39,373 nt of DNA from a virus (taxonomy: Duplodnaviria > Heunggongvirae > Uroviricota > Caudoviricetes). Shown piece by piece: positions 3,087 through 34,580 of this stretch. The stretch lies in IMG/VR virus record IMGVR_UViG_2534681996_000012, one strand, 5' to 3'. Both the position numbers and the translations under genes were made by a program. Below the pieces are notes generated by a model, which searched no databases, was not told the origin of the DNA, and saw nothing but the letters and a program-made list of their open reading frames with translations. Each line of letters begins with the position of its first letter. The first letter of the stretch is position 1.

Positions 3087-3322
3087 AAAAACCACCGTTT
3101 AATGTGCATATGCCCCCCTAATTTAAGGGGTTCATCATACACAATAAACCACATGTGGTTAAACAGGTAATTCATTGTGATACTAATGTTAAACTCATTA
3201 CTGCCGAAAAAGTGTCACTGATTAAAACACGGTAGAGAAATTATTAACGAGTAATTTAGGCATAATTACAATATTTAAGTTATTAATTCACTGATTTAAT
3301 CAGTAAAAGATAGCTATAACAT

Positions 3323-5384: not shown

Positions 5385-5488
5385 GTTAAATCTCCAGATA
5401 GTCGCAGCACCCGTTGCGCCGCATATCTGGTTATTCTATTACCTGAAAAACCACATATGGATAGAAATACTGTGAATATAAATAGATA

Positions 5489-5503
5489 TTACCTTTTAGG
5501 TAA
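5489..5503. promoter_or_regulatory. Operator-like palindrome TTACC-TTTTA-GGTAA in the tail-spike/accessory divergent region
   Basis: Perfect half-sites; 38 nt upstream of the LexA box. Confidence 0.5.
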
Positions 5504-5540
5504 TTTGCAAAACGTGCTGGATAGCAAACAAATTATTTGA

Positions 5541-5560: not shown

Positions 5561-5580
5561 ATTGCATGGAGAAGATTAAG

Positions 5581-5838
5581 ATGCAGCAGTATCACTATCC
5601 ACTGGAAGACGGATTTACCGAAAGGATTCACACGCCGGGAGGCGTCAAGTCACTGGTGGAGGGATCGCACTTGATGAAATTACTCCGGGATCTCGATAAG
5701 GATGGATTTAATGTCGATGGCCCACTTGCCGAACTGACTGCACTGATTAACTACGTCACCAGCTCACAGATGTCTATGCAGGATCTGCAAACACATCTCG
5801 ACTATTGTGCCGAACAATTACGAAAACAAACCAGATAA
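5581..5838 (+). CDS. Small protein sharing a C-terminal domain with the downstream Bro-N antirepressor; antirepressor-like regulator candidate
   Basis: ATG 5581 with GGAG 9 nt upstream (track start 5566 lacks RBS); IHTPGGVKSLVEGSHLMKLL...DLQTHLDYCAEQ aligns with IHSPSGVLGLTENSLLMNLL...DIQTHAEYIND of the 6152-6838 product. Confidence 0.55.
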   Translation: MQQYHYPLEDGFTERIHTPGGVKSLVEGSHLMKLLRDLDKDGFNVDGPLAELTALINYVTSSQMSMQDLQTHLDYCAEQLRKQTR

Positions 5839-5884: not shown

Positions 5885-5978
5885 ATTTACATCGCACTCC
5901 TCTTGTGCCATAGTAATCGGGCACTGGCAAAATCCAGTGCCGGGATTGGCGTCCCGAGTTACTACAGAGGCACATATG

Positions 5979-5998
5979 CCGCATAAGCGGTTTTTTTT
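5979..5998 (+). terminator. Weak intrinsic terminator (short stem plus T8)
   Basis: CCGC-ATAA-GCGG followed by eight T; sits between the small LexA-controlled gene and the antirepressor. Confidence 0.45.
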
Positions 5999-6151
5999 AT
6001 GTGTAAAGCGCACCTATTCTATGGTGGGCTGTGTGGGGGCACCGAAAGGTGCGCCGGGTCCTTTGTAGCCGGTTACGCCAACCCTGCACAGTTCACCACC
6101 AACCGATTGGCGTCGGTAGTGGTGATTAACCTAACTACAAAGGTGATCACT

Positions 6152-6838
6152 ATGACTGCTAACGTAACCCCATCTGTTTTTCATTTTGAATCAGAAGCAA
6201 CCATTCGAGCCATTGTTATTGATGGAAATCCTTGGTTTGTTGCCAAAGACGTTATTAAAGCTCTTCAACTGACAAACCCCACTATGTCAATAAAATCTCT
6301 TGATGATGATGAAAGGGCTAAATTTAACTTAGGCCGTCAAGGCGAAACCAATATTATCAACGAGTCAGGCCTCTACACACTGATCCTCCGCTGCCGCGAT
6401 GCAGTAACACCAGGCACTATCCCCTACCGCTTTCGCAAATGGGTTACAGGTGAGGTACTTCCTCAGATCCGCCGCACCGGAAGTTACATTAAAAACTCGC
6501 TCCCGCAGGAAGAACGCATAAAGATGGTTGCCGACCAGGTAGCCAACGCCACGGCGTCAGCAGTGATGCAGGCAATGAAGATAGAGAACAAAACCTACAG
6601 CGCCCCGCTGAAGCCCGGCTACCGCAGCCTGATTCATTCTCCGTCTGGTGTTCTCGGCCTGACGGAGAACTCACTGCTGATGAATCTGCTGAACCAGTTA
6701 CAGGACGACGGGCACGACGTATCGGGCGCGGCGGCGGAGCTGACCACCATGTTCTGTTACATCGTTGGTGTGAGCAAATGCCTGCGTGATATCCAGACCC
6801 ACGCGGAGTACATCAACGACAAGGCAGGGTTCTTCTGA
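6152..6838 (+). CDS. Bro-N domain antirepressor-like protein
   Basis: N-terminal IRAIVIDGNPWFVAKDV...ESGLYTLILRC...FRKWVTGEVLPQIRRTGSY is a Bro-N signature; ATG 6152 with AAGGTGA 5 nt upstream; track extension to 5999 spans a terminator and is rejected. Confidence 0.75.
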   Translation: MTANVTPSVFHFESEATIRAIVIDGNPWFVAKDVIKALQLTNPTMSIKSLDDDERAKFNLGRQGETNIINESGLYTLILRCRDAVTPGTIPYRFRKWVTGEVLPQIRRTGSYIKNSLPQEERIKMVADQVANATASAVMQAMKIENKTYSAPLKPGYRSLIHSPSGVLGLTENSLLMNLLNQLQDDGHDVSGAAAELTTMFCYIVGVSKCLRDIQTHAEYINDKAGFF

Positions 6839-7868: not shown

Positions 7869-8030
7869 ATGAAAAAAGCATTTGCTGCACTGTTCGTTTT
7901 GTTGTCTCTGGTAGCTTCAACTCAGGCCTTTGCCGGTCGTTGTCAGCACGACAGCGATACTGCCGCTGACGGCTCCCGCTGCGGTGGGCGTTCTGCGGAT
8001 TCCCGCCCGGGTGGCGGTGGCATTCGTTAA
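7869..8030 (+). CDS. Small secreted peptide (about 53 aa)
   Basis: Classic signal peptide MKKAFAALFVLLSLVASTQAFA then Cys/Gly/Asp-rich mature peptide; weak RBS; track start 7797 places the signal peptide internally so ATG 7869 is preferred. Confidence 0.4.
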   Translation: MKKAFAALFVLLSLVASTQAFAGRCQHDSDTAADGSRCGGRSADSRPGGGGIR

Positions 8031-8036
8031 AAACAA

Positions 8037-8052
8037 GGCCGCGAAAGCGGCC
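8037..8052. terminator. Bidirectional terminator hairpin between convergent accessory genes
   Basis: GGCCGC-GAAA-GCGGCC; TTGTTTTT follows on the minus strand and a T-rich tract 15 nt away on the plus strand. Confidence 0.6.
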
Positions 8053-8053
8053 T

Positions 8054-8065
8054 GTGACATGTCAC
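8054..8065. repeat. 12-bp perfect palindrome GTGACATGTCAC (copy 1), embedding the stop codon of the 8062-8358 gene
   Basis: Identical palindrome recurs at 28286-28297 in the same relationship to a stop codon and a terminator. Confidence 0.7.
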
Positions 8066-19435: not shown

Positions 19436-19755
19436 TCACCTCCGTTACCGTACAGAGTTTCAGCCGCTGATTTTTCTACATCCCCGGAAACAGGAGCGAT
19501 CGCCATATCAGTGATCTGCAGATCGGCGCTGCGATTAACGCCATCGTCAGTTTCTCTGGCAGACAGGCCTCGAATAACAGCCTTTGCAGTTATCATCACT
19601 TCTGTTCCGACGCCCTTAGGTTGCGCCTTCAGCTTATTCAATGTGTCGTTATTCAGCGTGATGCACAGCCCCCACGGGTATTCATCGCGAGTTCTGGTTT
19701 CTCCGCTCTCATCCTGGTAGCTGTCAGTGCCGGTTTTGAGGTTTACGAGTTCCAT
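19432..19755 (-). CDS. Hypothetical virion-module protein
   Basis: ATG 19755 with AGGAG 6 nt upstream (track start 19761 is GTG). Confidence 0.5.
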   Translation of the reverse strand: MELVNLKTGTDSYQDESGETRTRDEYPWGLCITLNNDTLNKLKAQPKGVGTEVMITAKAVIRGLSARETDDGVNRSADLQITDMAIAPVSGDVEKSAAETLYGNGGE

Positions 19756-24533: not shown

Positions 24534-24623
24534 ATCAATGACTCCGTACGCAATTAAATTATTACCAATTTAACCACATATGATTTATTTATCGTAGACA
24601 GTTGACATTTAACGCACGAATTA

Positions 24624-24960: not shown

Positions 24961-25037
24961 GTGGCATTAGCTCAGTTGGACAGAGCAACCGCCTTCTAAG
25001 CGGTTGGTCGCAGGTTCGAATCCTGCATGCCACGCCA
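24961..25037 (+). tRNA. tRNA-Arg (anticodon UCU)
   Basis: Cloverleaf folds by hand: acceptor GTGGCAT/ATGCCAC, D-stem GCTC/GAGC, anticodon stem ACCGC/GCGGT with loop CTTCTAA, T-arm GCAGG-TTCGAAT-CCTGC, discriminator G and encoded CCA. Confidence 0.85.
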
Positions 25038-25230: not shown

Positions 25231-25259
25231 ATGACCACAAATTACCTTAAAGGTATAAT
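25231..25259 (+). promoter_or_regulatory. Sigma70-like promoter (ATGACC-17-TATAAT) overlapped by operator-like TTACC-TTAAA-GGTAT
   Basis: Perfect -10 TATAAT at 25254-25259; operator variant at 25242-25256. Confidence 0.55.
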
Positions 25260-25284
25260 CATGAAAAACTTTAAGGTAATTAGT

Positions 25285-26109
25285 ATGTTCGAATCGTTCA
25301 AAGAGCTGTTTTTATCTACTGCCAATACTGCCGTGCATCGAGCTAAAAACCCTGTGCTTGGTGCTTTTGTTATGTCCTGGTGCGCCTTCAACTGGAAATC
25401 ACTTCTTTATCTATTTTTTAGCAAATCAAATATAATAGATAAAATTTCATACATCTCAGATAACAGCACATGGAAAACTGTTATGTTTTATCCATGCTTA
25501 TCTGTAATTACTATCTGCTGCCTATTACCATGGGTAAACAATATCATTAACGTATGGCAAGCAAAGCCTCTTGATAATAATGACTCAATCGAAAATCACC
25601 GGAAGGCAAGAAAAATACAACGTGAAACACGGCTACAGAGATTGCTGGCTAAAAAAGACATTACTTACGAAAAAGTAAAAACAGGCGCTGAAAAAAACAT
25701 TCAAGACATGAAAGAGGAAATAATTCTTTCAAAAGACAGAATGGGACAACTCACATCTGAATTGAAAGAGAGGGAGACAGAACTGCGCGCAGAACAAGCT
25801 CGTATTTTAGAATTATCTAAGGTTATTGATGAAACAACATCTAAACTAGAAAATCTAGAAAAAGCTCACAAAAATTTAAAAAACGAATATGAGTCCTATA
25901 AGAAAAACATTCCTTTGGCAACAAATAATACAATTGCTAATGGGCTTGTAGGTCTAAAATCATTACAAGACCTTAATGAGTCCGTAAAGAAACTTGGCGT
26001 TACTGGAATTAACAATCCAGAAATCAATACATTATTGAATAATCCTCTAGTAAATATAAATGGTGGTTTAAATTCCACCTATCAAAGAAAATTAAAAACA
26101 CAAAAGTAA
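25285..26109 (+). CDS. AT-rich accessory protein: two N-terminal TM helices plus long C-terminal coiled coil
   Basis: ATG 25285 with AAGGT 7 nt upstream (track start 25231 lies upstream of the predicted promoter); hydrophobic segments VLGAFVMSWCAFNWKSLLYLFF and VMFYPCLSVITICCLLPW; K/E-rich heptad-like C-half; stop 3 nt from the convergent terL stop. Confidence 0.55.
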   Translation: MFESFKELFLSTANTAVHRAKNPVLGAFVMSWCAFNWKSLLYLFFSKSNIIDKISYISDNSTWKTVMFYPCLSVITICCLLPWVNNIINVWQAKPLDNNDSIENHRKARKIQRETRLQRLLAKKDITYEKVKTGAEKNIQDMKEEIILSKDRMGQLTSELKERETELRAEQARILELSKVIDETTSKLENLEKAHKNLKNEYESYKKNIPLATNNTIANGLVGLKSLQDLNESVKKLGVTGINNPEINTLLNNPLVNINGGLNSTYQRKLKTQK

Positions 26110-26112
26110 AAA

Positions 26113-27582
26113 TCATTCAAATGGGTCATAGTCTGTTATAGCCCTGCCCTGCTGCTGCCGTGGGTCATTAGTTTTCTTGGCTACCGGGAAAGCAAACGTC
26201 AGCAGTAGCGCATCGCCTTTACCCGGCGAACGCCCAAGCCGCTCTTTGATATCTTCCTTCGGTTCGATAACGATTTTACCGTCCACACGAACTTTGTACT
26301 CTGCCGCCGACAGGTCATCCGCTGTTTCCTGGTCATCCAGCATCCCGCCGAGCCTCAGCCATGTCTTGCATGAGTTGAACATCTCCCCGCGCTTGTTAAG
26401 CATCTGCGGGTCAGTAGACGCGCCACCGAACGGAACAAGTTGCCATGTACGGCCCCAGCCATCACCGATTGACTTCAGACCGGTTCCGTAACCGAAGTCG
26501 ATGAACACCGCGTCAGCCTGATACTGGTCTTCAAAGTCAGCGATACGCTTCGCCATAATCAGATCGTCGGTGGTCTTGTTACCAGTCCATAGCACCTTAC
26601 TGTGCAGCCCCTGCCGCAGGTATATCACAGCGTCATCAACGCCGGAGTATGCCGGGTCAACGCCGATTATCACCGGAGCATGTGCCACCTGCGCAGCGGT
26701 GACCACCCGTTTCATTGCCTCGTCAGTAAGTCCGGTAGGGATAAACTGCAATTCAGATGCATCCGGGAATATGCCGCGCACACGGATTTTAACGAAGTCG
26801 CTGTCTTCCCCGTAGTCATCAACCCATTTCTGCAACTGCTGTTTGTTGGTGCCTTCCACCGTCCGGCTGTCAATCTGCGCAGTTTTCCAGCGGTGTTTAT
26901 ATTTGCGGAAACATTCGCGGAAACGCCCGGTGTTACGTGTAGGGTTTCCGAACGCCACCCAGATAATCTCAGTGTCTTCGTCCGTTAGCGCCCCCTCAGC
27001 AACTTCCCACACCAGATCCGCAATGTTCGACGCTTCATCGAATACCACGATGATGCGTTTGCGCTCGTTGTGTAGTCCGGCGAATGCCTCAGTGTTGTGC
27101 TCAGACCAGGGGATTGCGTCAGCTCGCCACCGCTTGTCGTGCCCAGGATCATTGCTGTACATCGCGGTAGCGGTACAGGTAAACCAGTCTTTCGTGATAG
27201 CAAGGTTCGACCACTTGATAATTTCCGGCCAGGTCTTCGTTCGTAGCTGGTTGTCGGTGTTGGCGGTCACCACGACCTTACAATCCTCGCAAGTGGACAT
27301 GCCCCAGTTGATCAGCATTGAGATGAATGCGGATTTACCAATACCGTGACCAGAAGCGCGTGCCAGCATAAGCGGCTGATAGCGCGTCTCTGGATTCTGC
27401 AGGTGATCACGTATCTCTCGGAACGCATCAGCCTGCCACTGACGTGGGCCGGTAGCATGTGCCAGTTCAGTCCCCTCTTCCCCCCACGGGAACGCATAGA
27501 GGGCATAGCCAAGCGGATCGTGAGTGAACCCTGCAATATCCTCGATCAACTGCTCTTCAGGAGATAACGCTGTATCTGTCAC
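26113..27582 (-). CDS. Terminase large subunit
   Basis: 489 aa; P-loop-like SGHGIGKS; C-terminal nuclease-like region VIIGVDPAYSGVDD; overlaps small-subunit gene by 4 nt. Confidence 0.9.
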   Translation of the reverse strand: MTDTALSPEEQLIEDIAGFTHDPLGYALYAFPWGEEGTELAHATGPRQWQADAFREIRDHLQNPETRYQPLMLARASGHGIGKSAFISMLINWGMSTCEDCKVVVTANTDNQLRTKTWPEIIKWSNLAITKDWFTCTATAMYSNDPGHDKRWRADAIPWSEHNTEAFAGLHNERKRIIVVFDEASNIADLVWEVAEGALTDEDTEIIWVAFGNPTRNTGRFRECFRKYKHRWKTAQIDSRTVEGTNKQQLQKWVDDYGEDSDFVKIRVRGIFPDASELQFIPTGLTDEAMKRVVTAAQVAHAPVIIGVDPAYSGVDDAVIYLRQGLHSKVLWTGNKTTDDLIMAKRIADFEDQYQADAVFIDFGYGTGLKSIGDGWGRTWQLVPFGGASTDPQMLNKRGEMFNSCKTWLRLGGMLDDQETADDLSAAEYKVRVDGKIVIEPKEDIKERLGRSPGKGDALLLTFAFPVAKKTNDPRQQQGRAITDYDPFE

Positions 27583-28172
27583 TGATTACCATCCTGACGT
27601 TCTTTGAGTCGCTTCCTGGCTGCTGCTATGCGATCAGCAATTGTCACATTCACATTAACATCCAGACGTTCTTTGAACGCGTTGACATCAACATGCTTAC
27701 CAATCAGCTCAAGGTTCTTCACCTTGTCAGGCCATTTAATTTTTTTGAGGATTGTCTCTATCGAATCCTCGTTCATGTTCATGATGGTCGATGACAGATC
27801 AAAGCCACTAAGCGTAGTGCGCCAGATTTTCGGCCACTCACGGATTGGTTTAAGGCTCCCATCGTCGTTGAGGATGTCGATCACGTCCATCTGGTCGATC
27901 TCCACCAGGCGCATGAGAACGTAATCAGCACTGACGCGCATTCGTTTGTTGCGCTCCTCCATCAACTCGGCAATCCGTTTTTGAATGCGTTCATCGCGCA
28001 TCATGACACTGGCTTTAACTGCCGCTGTATTTGGGGAGAATCCTGCGTTAATCGCTGCCTGAGTCTGGTTTTCAGGCGTTTTGATGTATGACTGGCAATA
28101 AGCCTCCTGCATTGCTGTTAGTGGCTTAAATTGCGTTGATTTGCGTTTATAGGTTTTAGGTTCAGCAGGCAT
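27579..28172 (-). CDS. Terminase small subunit
   Basis: Basic N-terminal region; ATG 28172 with GGTGG 5 nt upstream; track start 28253 is TTG and would place a terminator hairpin inside the ORF. Confidence 0.6.
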   Translation of the reverse strand: MPAEPKTYKRKSTQFKPLTAMQEAYCQSYIKTPENQTQAAINAGFSPNTAAVKASVMMRDERIQKRIAELMEERNKRMRVSADYVLMRLVEIDQMDVIDILNDDGSLKPIREWPKIWRTTLSGFDLSSTIMNMNEDSIETILKKIKWPDKVKNLELIGKHVDVNAFKERLDVNVNVTIADRIAAARKRLKERQDGNQ

Positions 28173-28182
28173 CATAACCACC

Positions 28183-28214
28183 GTGGTAATAGTTACCGTT
28201 GTGGTAATAGTACC
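28183..28214 (-). promoter_or_regulatory. Tandem direct repeats GTGGTAATAGT(T)ACC just upstream of the terS RBS
   Basis: Two copies 18 bp apart, each containing GGTAA-TAG-T(T)ACC; sit between a terminator and the first late gene. Confidence 0.4.
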
Positions 28215-28217
28215 ATG

Positions 28218-28244
28218 CAAAATAAAGCCGCCATAGTTGGCGGC
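28218..28244 (-). terminator. Intrinsic terminator upstream of the late (packaging) operon
   Basis: On the minus strand GCCGCCA-ACTA-TGGCGGC followed by TTTATTTT. Confidence 0.65.
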
Positions 28245-28285
28245 AGTATTCAAAACCCATCAAATTCATCATGCATAATCTACTC

Positions 28286-28297
28286 GTGACATGTCAC
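28286..28297. repeat. 12-bp perfect palindrome GTGACATGTCAC (copy 2), embedding the stop codon of the 28294-28635 gene
   Basis: Same palindrome as 8054-8065; TGA stop occupies the same positions within it. Confidence 0.7.
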
Positions 28298-28635
28298 ACT
28301 ATTAATTTCGTTTCATGCCAGCCTTTAGTCACCCAGCATTGCGAGTCACCATTACACGGGCATGAATTAACTGGAACTCTCTCGCCGCACTTACCGCAAC
28401 ATTTTCTGCTGATCGATTTTATACGCCCGCGCACGCGTGCATCATCCTGGCGGATCAGTAACGCTATATACTCACCAAATTCGTAAGGCGCACGCCCGGG
28501 GCGACGCGTGGCACAGTTACGCTCCAGCATTTCAATTTCCTGAGCATCAAGCACAATTTCCAGCTTACGCACACCAGATGCAGCTTGTCTGGCTCTCTGA
28601 GCGGCTTTGCGCTCTGCTGCTGATTTAGCCATCAA
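28294..28635 (-). CDS. Small basic protein with C-terminal Cys-rich zinc-finger-like motif; late regulator candidate
   Basis: CCGKCGERVPVNSCPCNGDSQCW; last early-region gene immediately upstream of the terminator and terS. Confidence 0.4.
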   Translation of the reverse strand: MMAKSAAERKAAQRARQAASGVRKLEIVLDAQEIEMLERNCATRRPGRAPYEFGEYIALLIRQDDARVRGRIKSISRKCCGKCGERVPVNSCPCNGDSQCWVTKGWHETKLIV

Positions 28636-31223: not shown

Positions 31224-31226
31224 GAT

Positions 31227-31241
31227 TTACCCCTGAGGTAA
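31227..31241. promoter_or_regulatory. Operator-like palindrome TTACC-CCTGA-GGTAA overlapping the RBS of the 30879-31223 gene
   Basis: Perfect half-sites; imperfect copy TTATC-TAACA-GGTAA at 31289-31303. Confidence 0.5.
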
Positions 31242-31340
31242 TTAAAAACCACATAAGACACGAAATCAATAGATTTTAGAATACTTTATTATCTAACAGG
31301 TAATTATCGAAACGTAAAAAAATGCGCTATCGCGCTGGTA

Positions 31341-33234: not shown

Positions 33235-33304
33235 TTACCTTTGAGGTGCGAATAGATATGAAAAGACCGCCGGGTGGCGGTCTACAGAGGGTTGTGGCTG
33301 GATA

Positions 33305-33571: not shown

Positions 33572-33634
33572 TCACCCATAAGGTAACAAAAATCAAGGAT
33601 AGTTACCTATGGGGTGCATTTACCTGTTGGGTAA
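33572..33634. promoter_or_regulatory. Immunity-region operator cluster (three TTACC-N5-GGTAA-type sites) with divergent promoters
   Basis: TCACC-CATAA-GGTAA 33572-33586, TTACC-TATGG-GGTGC 33603-33617, TTACC-TGTTG-GGTAA 33620-33634; plus AT-rich inverted repeat TATTTAT-N8-ATAAATA at 33549-33570. Confidence 0.6.
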
Positions 33635-33689: not shown

Positions 33690-34274
33690 ATGAAAAGTAT
33701 CCAGGACGTCCGCAGGCAAAATCTCAACGACTTGATCGACCGTGAATTCAATGGTGTTCAGACGCGGATGGCAGAAAAACTTGGAACTCAGGCAAATCTG
33801 GTAAACCGCTGGGCTCTTGGCAAGAAGGTTATCGGCGACCAGGTTGCGCGAAAAATTGAAGCTGCCGCCAATAAACCCCGTAACTGGCTTGATATCGATC
33901 GCTCGCTTTCTCAGGAAGGTTTTCAGCCTGTCGGCCCAAGCGACATTGGTCAGCTGGCGGCTCACAACCTGGAACGCTGGATGAGCGAAAGCCGCGACCT
34001 TTCAACACAGGGAAAACTTCACCGCGCATCCGGCGTCGCCCAGGTGACAATCAGCCGCCTGTTAAACAATGAGGTCAGCGTTTCCATTTCCACCCTGGAG
34101 AATGTTGCATCCGCATTCGGGCGTCACGGCTATGAATTACTGATTCACCCGCACGACCCTGCGACCATCAACTATGACCGCTCGCGCTACGCATTGTTAC
34201 CCGAAACCGAGAAAGCAAAGATCGAAAGTTACATTGAATTTGTCATCAACCAGAACGAAAAAAACAAACAATAA
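33690..34274 (+). CDS. Prophage repressor, tandem HTH domains, no LexA-like peptidase domain
   Basis: Two XRE-type HTH-like segments (MAEKLGTQANLVNRWALGKK and LHRASGVAQVTISRLLNNE); no Ala-Gly cleavage site or Ser/Lys dyad; followed by terminator and operator-controlled promoter. Confidence 0.65.
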   Translation: MKSIQDVRRQNLNDLIDREFNGVQTRMAEKLGTQANLVNRWALGKKVIGDQVARKIEAAANKPRNWLDIDRSLSQEGFQPVGPSDIGQLAAHNLERWMSESRDLSTQGKLHRASGVAQVTISRLLNNEVSVSISTLENVASAFGRHGYELLIHPHDPATINYDRSRYALLPETEKAKIESYIEFVINQNEKNKQ

Positions 34275-34427: not shown

Positions 34428-34580
34428 ATGCAGTGGAAAATCATCAACGGTTGGTACTGCGTTACTGCATGCGGATTCATGAGCTGGAAGTTCCGCACCT
34501 TACAGGAAGGCATTAAGTGGGCTTTCGTCAGCAAAGAAGCTCGCGATGTGGCCAACGATAACGAGATATGGGAGGGCTGA
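34428..34580 (+). CDS. Small 50-aa ORF, first gene of early-left operon
   Basis: GAGGT 9 nt upstream of ATG; stop 2 nt before the next gene's ATG; Trp/Cys-containing hydrophobic N-terminus; below the track's length cut-off. Confidence 0.35.
   Translation: MQWKIINGWYCVTACGFMSWKFRTLQEGIKWAFVSKEARDVANDNEIWEG

Follow-up and report, generated by a model that had tools for sequence, protein, structure and literature searches.

Epsilon15-like podophages occur commonly as prophages in E. coli, Salmonella, Klebsiella and Enterobacter. To our knowledge they encode neither a phage RNA polymerase nor a recognizable Q or N protein, and we know of no mechanism described for the timing of their late genes; we searched the literature and found nothing usable about how phages of the epsilon15 group control their late genes or about gp46 of phage N15. 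Here we analyze the junction that leads into the terminase genes (positions 28,173 to 28,635) of a 39,373-nt viral DNA, IMG/VR record IMGVR_UViG_2534681996_000012, referred to at its full length as the window. Judged by its sequence, the window is an epsilon15/phiV10-like (Uetakevirus) temperate podophage, and its junction region matches Escherichia phage vB_EcoP_PAS61 at 99%, with further matches to phiV10, TL-2011b and other Uetakevirus.

The closest described locus is the equivalent junction of epsilon15 (NC_004775.2). Gene order is the same, an identical palindrome lies at the stop codon of the last gene before terS, and the terminator and first operator are homologous; the epsilon15 record annotates these last two as a stem_loop and as a protein_bind site, 'repressor'. 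The two phages differ in the spacer and in their proteins, which are ~76% identical. The second operator, the palindrome and the palindrome's other copies carry no annotation in that record.

A first-pass annotation of the window had likened this junction to the Q/pR'/tR' antitermination cassette of lambdoid phages, assembled from a small Cys-rich protein, a promoter-like sequence over the palindrome, an intrinsic terminator and tandem repeats that would bind an activator. Every element of that description was found in place, and the palindrome, which had been noticed, proved the most interesting of them. The comparison holds insofar as a regulatory junction precedes terS and follows the gene of a small, Cys-containing, predicted DNA-binding protein; it fails on the protein itself, which has no relation to Q.

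Results

A proposed guarded entrance to terS and terL

In the reading that we consider probable, the junction is an insulated border between the last early-type unit and the packaging genes terS and terL, and keeps the terminase silent in the lysogen. Its elements, read along the minus strand, are the following.

28294 to 28632, minus strand: gene of a 112-residue predicted ribbon-helix-helix (RHH) and Cys-rich protein, epsilon15 gp49 / N15 gp46 family (phrog_536)
28286 to 28297, no strand assigned: perfect 12-bp palindrome GTGACATGTCAC, containing the TGA stop of the 112-residue gene
28245 to 28285, minus strand: variable spacer or insertion slot, with the 3' remnant (28250-28270) of a 69-codon open reading frame (ORF)
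28219 to 28244, minus strand: intrinsic terminator, GCCGCC-AACT-ATGGCGGC then TTTATTTT, conserved in relatives and annotated in epsilon15
28192 to 28208, no strand assigned: predicted repressor operator 1, ATTACCACAACGGTAAC as read on the minus strand; its epsilon15 equivalent is annotated 'repressor'
28174 to 28190, no strand assigned: predicted repressor operator 2, ATTACCACGGTGGTTAT as read on the minus strand; its epsilon15 counterpart has 2 mismatches
27579 to 28172, minus strand: terS, small terminase subunit (Pfam Terminase_2, E 1e-29; phrog_51)
26113 to 27582, minus strand: terL, large terminase subunit, the last gene served by the junction

Upstream on the same strand lie a lambda-P-like replication gene, a DUF1064 Holliday-junction resolvase gene and small genes of Ea22, DUF551 and ASCH type, followed by the gene of the small Cys-rich protein, an intergenic region of 118 nt, terS and terL. 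Comparison with the epsilon15 and TL-2011b annotations makes ATG 28172 the likely terS start. The 224-residue terS annotated in PAS61, from TTG 28253, would traverse the terminator and both operators and is probably not real, since the curated epsilon15 and TL-2011b records take the short start. Beyond terL the next features are a convergent plus-strand gene and a tRNA-Arg gene, and terS-terL are the sole genes served by the junction. The portal/head, tailspike and lysis units each have an operator-headed upstream region of their own, which does not accord with the earlier proposal of a new late control for the whole virion module.

The intrinsic terminator, noted at the outset, is strong and conserved. 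Its stem-loop (28244-28227) has 7 pairs, 6 of them G-C, around a 4-nt loop, and TTTATTTT runs on to 28219. We aligned the intergenic region with those of epsilon15, 65FD, BUCT554, a Klebsiella phage and a metagenomic relative; terminator and operator pair are common to epsilon15, 65FD, the Klebsiella phage and a relative designated L096. From the T-tract to the terS start codon there are ~45 nt, all of it operator DNA and none promoter-like, and neither a scan nor inspection by eye found a sigma-70 promoter between the terminator and the terS ATG. With no room for a promoter there, terS-terL are probably transcribed by read-through from upstream. No known RNA family was found in the junction with Rfam, which did give matches elsewhere in the window.

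Tandem repeats as predicted paired repressor operators

The repeats at 28183-28214 had been described as direct repeats and taken for activator sites. Exact 11-mers GTGGTAATAGT do occur at 28183-28193 and 28201-28211, 18 bp apart, and such a pair within 700 nt is borderline by itself. The repeat gains its significance because each copy falls within a palindromic 17-bp motif found in the window ~16 times as often as expected: ATTACC-N5-GGTAAT, with at most 2 mismatches allowed, has 15 matches against 0.92 expected, none of the shuffles got as high as 15, and epsilon15 has 18. In the alignment of the intergenic region it is this inverted repeat, present twice, that is conserved. Across 27 distinct close variants the four half-sites never change, whereas N5 spacers, linker base and left repeat flank do; for this reason we rejected the direct-repeat activator reading. 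By their sequence the tandem repeats are two adjacent operators of the prophage repressor, for which binding is predicted.

The same motif forms a genome-wide family, centered on these two features:

33690 to 34274, plus strand: prophage repressor gene of the SPC32H Rep type (PDB 5D50, E 4e-42)
31226 to 31304, minus strand: operator pair 62 bp apart around a promoter-like region, heading the unit that runs from the resolvase gene to the 112-residue gene; the epsilon15 equivalent is annotated

Operators at 33619, 34331 and 34393 stand on both sides of the repressor gene, and at the leftward early operon copies enclose a TTGACA-17-CATAAT promoter. The motif occurs at PL and PR, and further copies head the resolvase, portal/head and tailspike units. 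The epsilon15 RefSeq record annotates as 'repressor' the site in front of terS and five others, distributed over the immunity region and the stretches before gp3, the tail fibre gene and the resolvase gene. Together, the positions at PL, PR and unit starts and the epsilon15 annotation contradict the assignment of the repeats to an activator.

Repeats lying immediately upstream of terS could also be a pac site, that is, the recognition site of the small terminase for headful packaging, and several GenBank records of relatives begin in this very intergenic region. The starts of these records, however, differ between phages and look conventional, and the 17-bp motif recurs in at least 12 other places, including both flanks of the repressor gene; we regard a pac function as highly improbable.

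Operator 2 overlaps the terS Shine-Dalgarno sequence (GGTGG, 28178-28182) and ends one base before ATG 28172. In the minus-strand RNA of 28170-28220 the two operators fold into a hairpin that pairs both the Shine-Dalgarno sequence and the AUG, with a predicted free energy of -20.7 kcal/mol (z -3.5). The corresponding hairpin of BUCT554, which has no terminator, reaches -32 kcal/mol (z -6.1), and those of epsilon15 and the Klebsiella phage are weak.

Several side observations concern the operators at other loci. A perfect operator at 5488-5504 stands upstream of a LexA box (TACTGTATAAATATACAGT) and of a 90-residue ORF (5566-5838, plus strand) that is divergent from the tailspike gene, as one would expect of a small antirepressor under SOS control like that of SPC32H (Ant). 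A further motif, CATATGTGGTT, occurs on the minus strand at 3147-3160, 5449-5458, 24572-24581 and 31247-31256, in each case 30-45 nt downstream of a repressor operator and followed after ~5 nt by a GGTAAT half-site. These copies precede the lysis, tailspike, portal/head and resolvase units, and in epsilon15 the motif has the same setting before gp3, the tail fibre gene, gp23 and the resolvase gene. Compared with sigma-70 elements, CATATGTGGTT fits neither an extended -10 nor a -35; it may mark real middle or late promoters.

An insertion slot and a promoter-like scar

Between palindrome and terminator, many close relatives carry an additional 186 nt that encode an intact 69-residue ORF, of which the window spacer keeps just the last codons, GATGAATTTGATGGGTTTTGA. 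Other relatives hold other genes in this place: a DUF2513 gene, an 85-residue gene behind a LexA-box promoter or, in BUCT554, a UmuD-like gene behind a LexA-box promoter, where the terminator is missing. The slot appears as an insertion hot spot in the window and in the relatives L009, L011, L028 and L096, and the window keeps a scar.

The promoter-like sequence over the palindrome, GTGACA-18-CATGAT (28297..28268), does match the consensus at 9/12 positions. Sites of this quality are at chance level, with 2 observed in the 2-kb region against 3.4 ± 1.9 in shuffles, and the -10-like CATGAT sits within the deletion remnant of the 69-codon ORF. Since relatives have whole genes inserted between palindrome and terminator, a promoter that uses the palindrome as its -35 is not a conserved feature, and we rejected it as a pR'-like promoter. 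The terminator and one operator were already annotated in epsilon15; the second operator and the origin of the "promoter" in a scar appear to be new.

These findings bear on the view that the 113-residue ORF product is a miniature Q-like antiterminator, acting at a pR'-like promoter over the palindrome so that polymerase reads through the terminator, with the repeats as activator sites. The gene does sit in Q's place, last before late genes, with a strong terminator downstream; GTGACA supplies 5/6 of a -35 hexamer, and in this phage as in epsilon15 a weak -10 follows at 17-18 nt. Elsewhere in the phage we found no homolog of N or Q; the leftward operon has only a PerC-like activator and an AlpA-like Xis. 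Against this stand the chance-level promoter match, the -10 within a remnant where relatives with whole genes have no -10 at that distance, the identity of the repeats as predicted repressor operators, and the restriction of the downstream genes to terS-terL. The protein itself, considered next, is a predicted RHH protein and unlike Q, and its homologs elsewhere coexist with Q, Mor or a regulator in Ogr position. Overall, we judge a Q-like mechanism very unlikely.

The 112-residue protein

The mechanically called ORF (28294-28635, minus strand) has 113 codons from a TTG at 28635. The true start is probably ATG 28632, because homologs are almost all 112 residues long and begin MAKS. The 112-residue protein matches phrog_536 (E 8.5e-55), whose label, "transcriptional regulator", has no experimental basis, and belongs to no Pfam family. 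In a library of 50%-identity representatives it has 239 relatives at E <= 1e-3, nearly all of 105-135 residues. The Cys motif noticed at first pass is real: C79, C82 and C99 do not vary among 33 diverse homologs. From these homologs we built an AlphaFold2 model (predicted local distance difference test score, pLDDT, 85), which indicates that the protein has an RHH (beta-alpha-alpha) fold with a Cys-rich tail: C-terminal to the RHH domain come a long helix and then a Cys-rich knuckle carrying the three invariant residues. Weak profile matches to YbfE and RepB-RCR_reg agree with the RHH fold.

Profile searches against Pfam, NCBIfam and PHROG gave no match to a Q family, which together with the fold comparison removes the Q-like assignment, and none of the 33 family members matched the Ogr_Delta or Mor Pfam families. 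Two further candidates were rejected. A DksA/TraR-type C4 zinc finger (PF01258, CxxC...CxxC with a TraR-like fold) did not fit the protein, which failed in the test of fold. Comparison with MatP by hhalign was not significant and aligned nothing beyond helix 2, leaving the general RHH fold as the one thing common to both.

Homologs are found next to canonical late regulators. N15 encodes its homolog, gp46, alongside gp40, which is annotated 'late transcription activator'; Pantoea myophage AH07 has a homolog in a leftward operon before xis and also encodes a Q-like antitermination protein; a P2-like phage carries one alongside a 72-residue regulator in Ogr position, taken as Ogr from its size and position; and in two prophages Mor is encoded separately beside the homologs. 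Because of this coexistence with Q, Mor or an Ogr-position regulator, phrog_536 is probably not a general late switch.

A palindrome that accompanies the family

GTGACATGTCAC is the only perfect palindrome of at least 10 bp that is repeated in the window, and likewise in epsilon15. Its second copy in the window has a terminator directly behind it:

8054 to 8065: second exact GTGACATGTCAC, containing the TGA stop of a 118-residue membrane ORF
8029 to 8065, minus strand: this second GTGACATGTCAC with the terminator GGCCGC-TTTC-GCGGCC-TTGTTTTT directly after it

The window thus has 2 exact copies and epsilon15 has 3, each just 5' of a terminator on its T-tract strand at a distance of 0-45 nt; the epsilon15 site at 19517 has the same arrangement as 8029..8065. 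In L096 the site lies 9 nt past a TAA stop, so it is the DNA that is conserved rather than the coding sequence.

In its relaxed form, GTGAC-NN-GTCAC, the palindrome was found with every homolog examined, down to ~32% protein identity. Over 304 kb there are 23 sites against 0.29 expected, while spacings of 0, 1, 3, 4 or 5 nt give 2 sites altogether (1 of them with a 3-nt centre); lambda, which has no homolog gene, has 0 sites. The sites in more distant phages are placed as follows.

N15: at the stop codon of gene 46, with two further copies
P2-like Yersinia phage: at the homolog's stop codon
Pantoea myophage AH07: at the homolog's stop codon
Providencia prophage: upstream, ~100 nt from the homolog
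Vibrio phage K308: three copies, one of them 31 nt upstream of the terS ATG
N15-like prophage L102: ~400 nt downstream of the homolog gene
Mu-like prophage L103 and lambdoid/Mu hybrid prophage L104: inside the homolog gene

The simplest reading of this linkage between gene and palindrome is that GTGACATGTCAC is probably the recognition site of the 112-residue protein, and the pairing of phrog_536 proteins with GTGAC-NN-GTCAC across unrelated phage types appears to be new. Two of the more distant copies lie within genes of interest. One N15 copy (33237-33248 of the record that we compared as L098) is inside repA, ~620 nt from the repA start. In AH07 (compared as L097), an exact GTGACATGTCAC at 34430-34441 lies within the Q-like antitermination gene and encodes V-T-C-H of a C-V-T-C-H-G zinc-finger motif, either by chance or as a functional second site.

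The position of the sites invites the view that the RHH-zinc protein, bound at GTGACATGTCAC, modulates termination. It would either act on RNA polymerase to make it read through, serving terS-terL as a late switch, or stand as a roadblock that strengthens the ends of units and shields convergent ones. All five exact sites of the window and epsilon15 (5/5) lie close upstream of intrinsic terminators, one N15 site has the end of gene 33 on one side and an annotated terminator on the other, one K308 site stands near terS, and most phage types examined have the gene at the end of an early operon for replication or recombination. In contrast, the sites at N15 gene 46, in AH07 and in the Mu-like prophages are not beside terminators, and some fall within coding sequence. 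A TraR/DksA-like relationship would have pointed to binding of RNA polymerase, but this lead failed in the fold test. We know of no mechanism by which an RHH protein on duplex DNA upstream of a hairpin promotes read-through. We consider such a modulator possible but doubtful.

A broader form of the idea makes phrog_536 an unrecognized, widespread family of phage regulators, ~240 clusters at 50% identity, whose invariant cognate site would be the matS-like palindrome GTGAC-NN-GTCAC, usually in the stop codon of their own gene. In Q-less phages such as the epsilon15 group, a regulator of this kind would switch termination at palindromes directly upstream of intrinsic terminators and so govern both access to the packaging genes and where late units end. 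We rate this wider proposal as rather unlikely; if true, it would amount to a DNA-site-dependent termination switch of a new kind.

The protein-palindrome pair could instead be unrelated to late transcription. It might be a module that organizes DNA, acts like a partition system or is linked to replication, comparable to MatP/matS, ParG or omega, or else an accessory gene that regulates itself and stands beside terS by happenstance. The palindrome arms are identical to those of matS, GTGAC(A/G)N(T/C)GTCAC (PMC3116907), and the centre is shorter by one base. Each genome has 2-3 sites, which are dispersed, the family occurs in several plasmid-prophages that encode ParA (N15, K308, L102), one N15 site is the copy in repA, and the weak RepB-RCR_reg and YbfE matches point the same way. 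However, the MatP profile comparison yielded nothing beyond helix 2, integrating phages such as this one need no partition, and the sites cluster at unit ends and are not spread out. We therefore view a role of this kind as quite improbable.

Other features of the genome

The tRNA-Arg gene (anticodon TCT, 24961-25037, plus strand) is situated between the portal unit and terL. It is encoded on the other strand from the late genes and adjoins a 292-residue ORF (25231-26109, plus strand) with its own operator and promoter-like site. Rfam gave two plus-strand hits above the gathering score, isrK (5921-5997) and C4 antisense RNA (6017-6103). They are found directly before a Bro-N antirepressor-like ORF (5999-6838) and overlap its start, and the region looks like a P1/P7 immI-type c4/ant module in an epsilon15-like phage.

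Discussion

We propose that the insulated border works as follows. The upstream promoters feeding terS-terL would themselves be under operator control, and the operator-flanked region 31226-31304 is the nearest candidate source of transcripts that reach the terminator and terS. Read-through would be blocked in the lysogen by the terminator and by a repressor tetramer bound to the two operators, and the hairpin formed by the two operators in any transcript would bury the Shine-Dalgarno sequence and AUG as a third safeguard. A triple block on the terminase agrees with the tolerance of SOS-inducible genes in the slot immediately upstream. Once an antirepressor inactivates the repressor, read-through transcripts would reach terS-terL. 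The RHH protein may tune termination or insulate units upstream of the terminators here and at 8029-8052, as suggested by the sites that precede both terminators here and all three in epsilon15. The analysis also suggests that repressor operators stand at the head of all late units, which would mean an unusually direct control of late genes by the repressor.

Several points weigh against this proposal. BUCT554 lacks the terminator altogether, and in the window the terminator looks strong enough that read-through would need help from some further factor. The assignment of the motif to the repressor is drawn from the epsilon15 annotation and from the position and enrichment of the motif, and the 18-bp centre-to-centre spacing is unusual beside the 62 bp of the PL and resolvase-unit pairs. 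A weak activator-dependent promoter could still be hidden inside the operators. As for the protein, the predicted RHH strand residues differ between subfamilies and the palindrome arms are invariant; the site may be recognized by a conserved basic helix at the N terminus, or its binder may be something other than this protein.

The entrance to terS thus appears to be guarded by a terminator and a pair of prophage-repressor operators. For phrog_536, which is spread over lambdoid, N15-like, P2-like, Mu-like and Vibrio phages, the palindrome provides a concrete and easily testable candidate DNA site, through which the function of this uncharacterized family becomes directly approachable. A Q-like mechanism is not supported, and the 112-residue protein could nonetheless have a role in termination control.

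Comparison with known systems

The late regulators P2 Ogr, P4 Delta and Mu Mor/C are likewise small, Cys-containing proteins of temperate phages, some of them made at the end of early expression. The 112-residue protein differs in having no profile match to them and in having homologs that coexist with Mor and with an Ogr-position regulator. With Q/pR'/tR' of lambda the junction shares a small regulator as the last early gene and a terminator before late genes. It differs in the lack of Q homology, in its predicted RHH fold and in having no conserved promoter or pause element; lambda has no repressor operators between terminator and late genes, whereas they are present here, and only terS-terL follow.

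Among RHH regulators (P22 Arc/Mnt, CopG, ParG, MatP/matS), the predicted fold and a short palindromic candidate site are familiar, whereas the extra conserved Cys-rich C-terminal module and the position of the site at the 3' end of its own gene, not at a promoter, are not. MatP is also an RHH protein and the arms GTGAC/GTCAC are equal; the site here has 12 bp with a 2-nt centre and matS has 13 bp with a 3-nt centre, and we found no sequence relation between the proteins.

The SPC32H Rep/Ant switch (PDB 5D50/5D4Z) offers the nearest parallel for the repressor. The operator pair over the terS ribosome-binding site is a difference, which we could not trace to the SPC32H work. The window encodes a homologous repressor and, in the place where a small antirepressor would be expected, the LexA-box-controlled ORF at 5566-5838. 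A paper that cites the SPC32H work describes Rep as a tetramer on palindromic sites (PMC9638917), which fits the paired operators found here.

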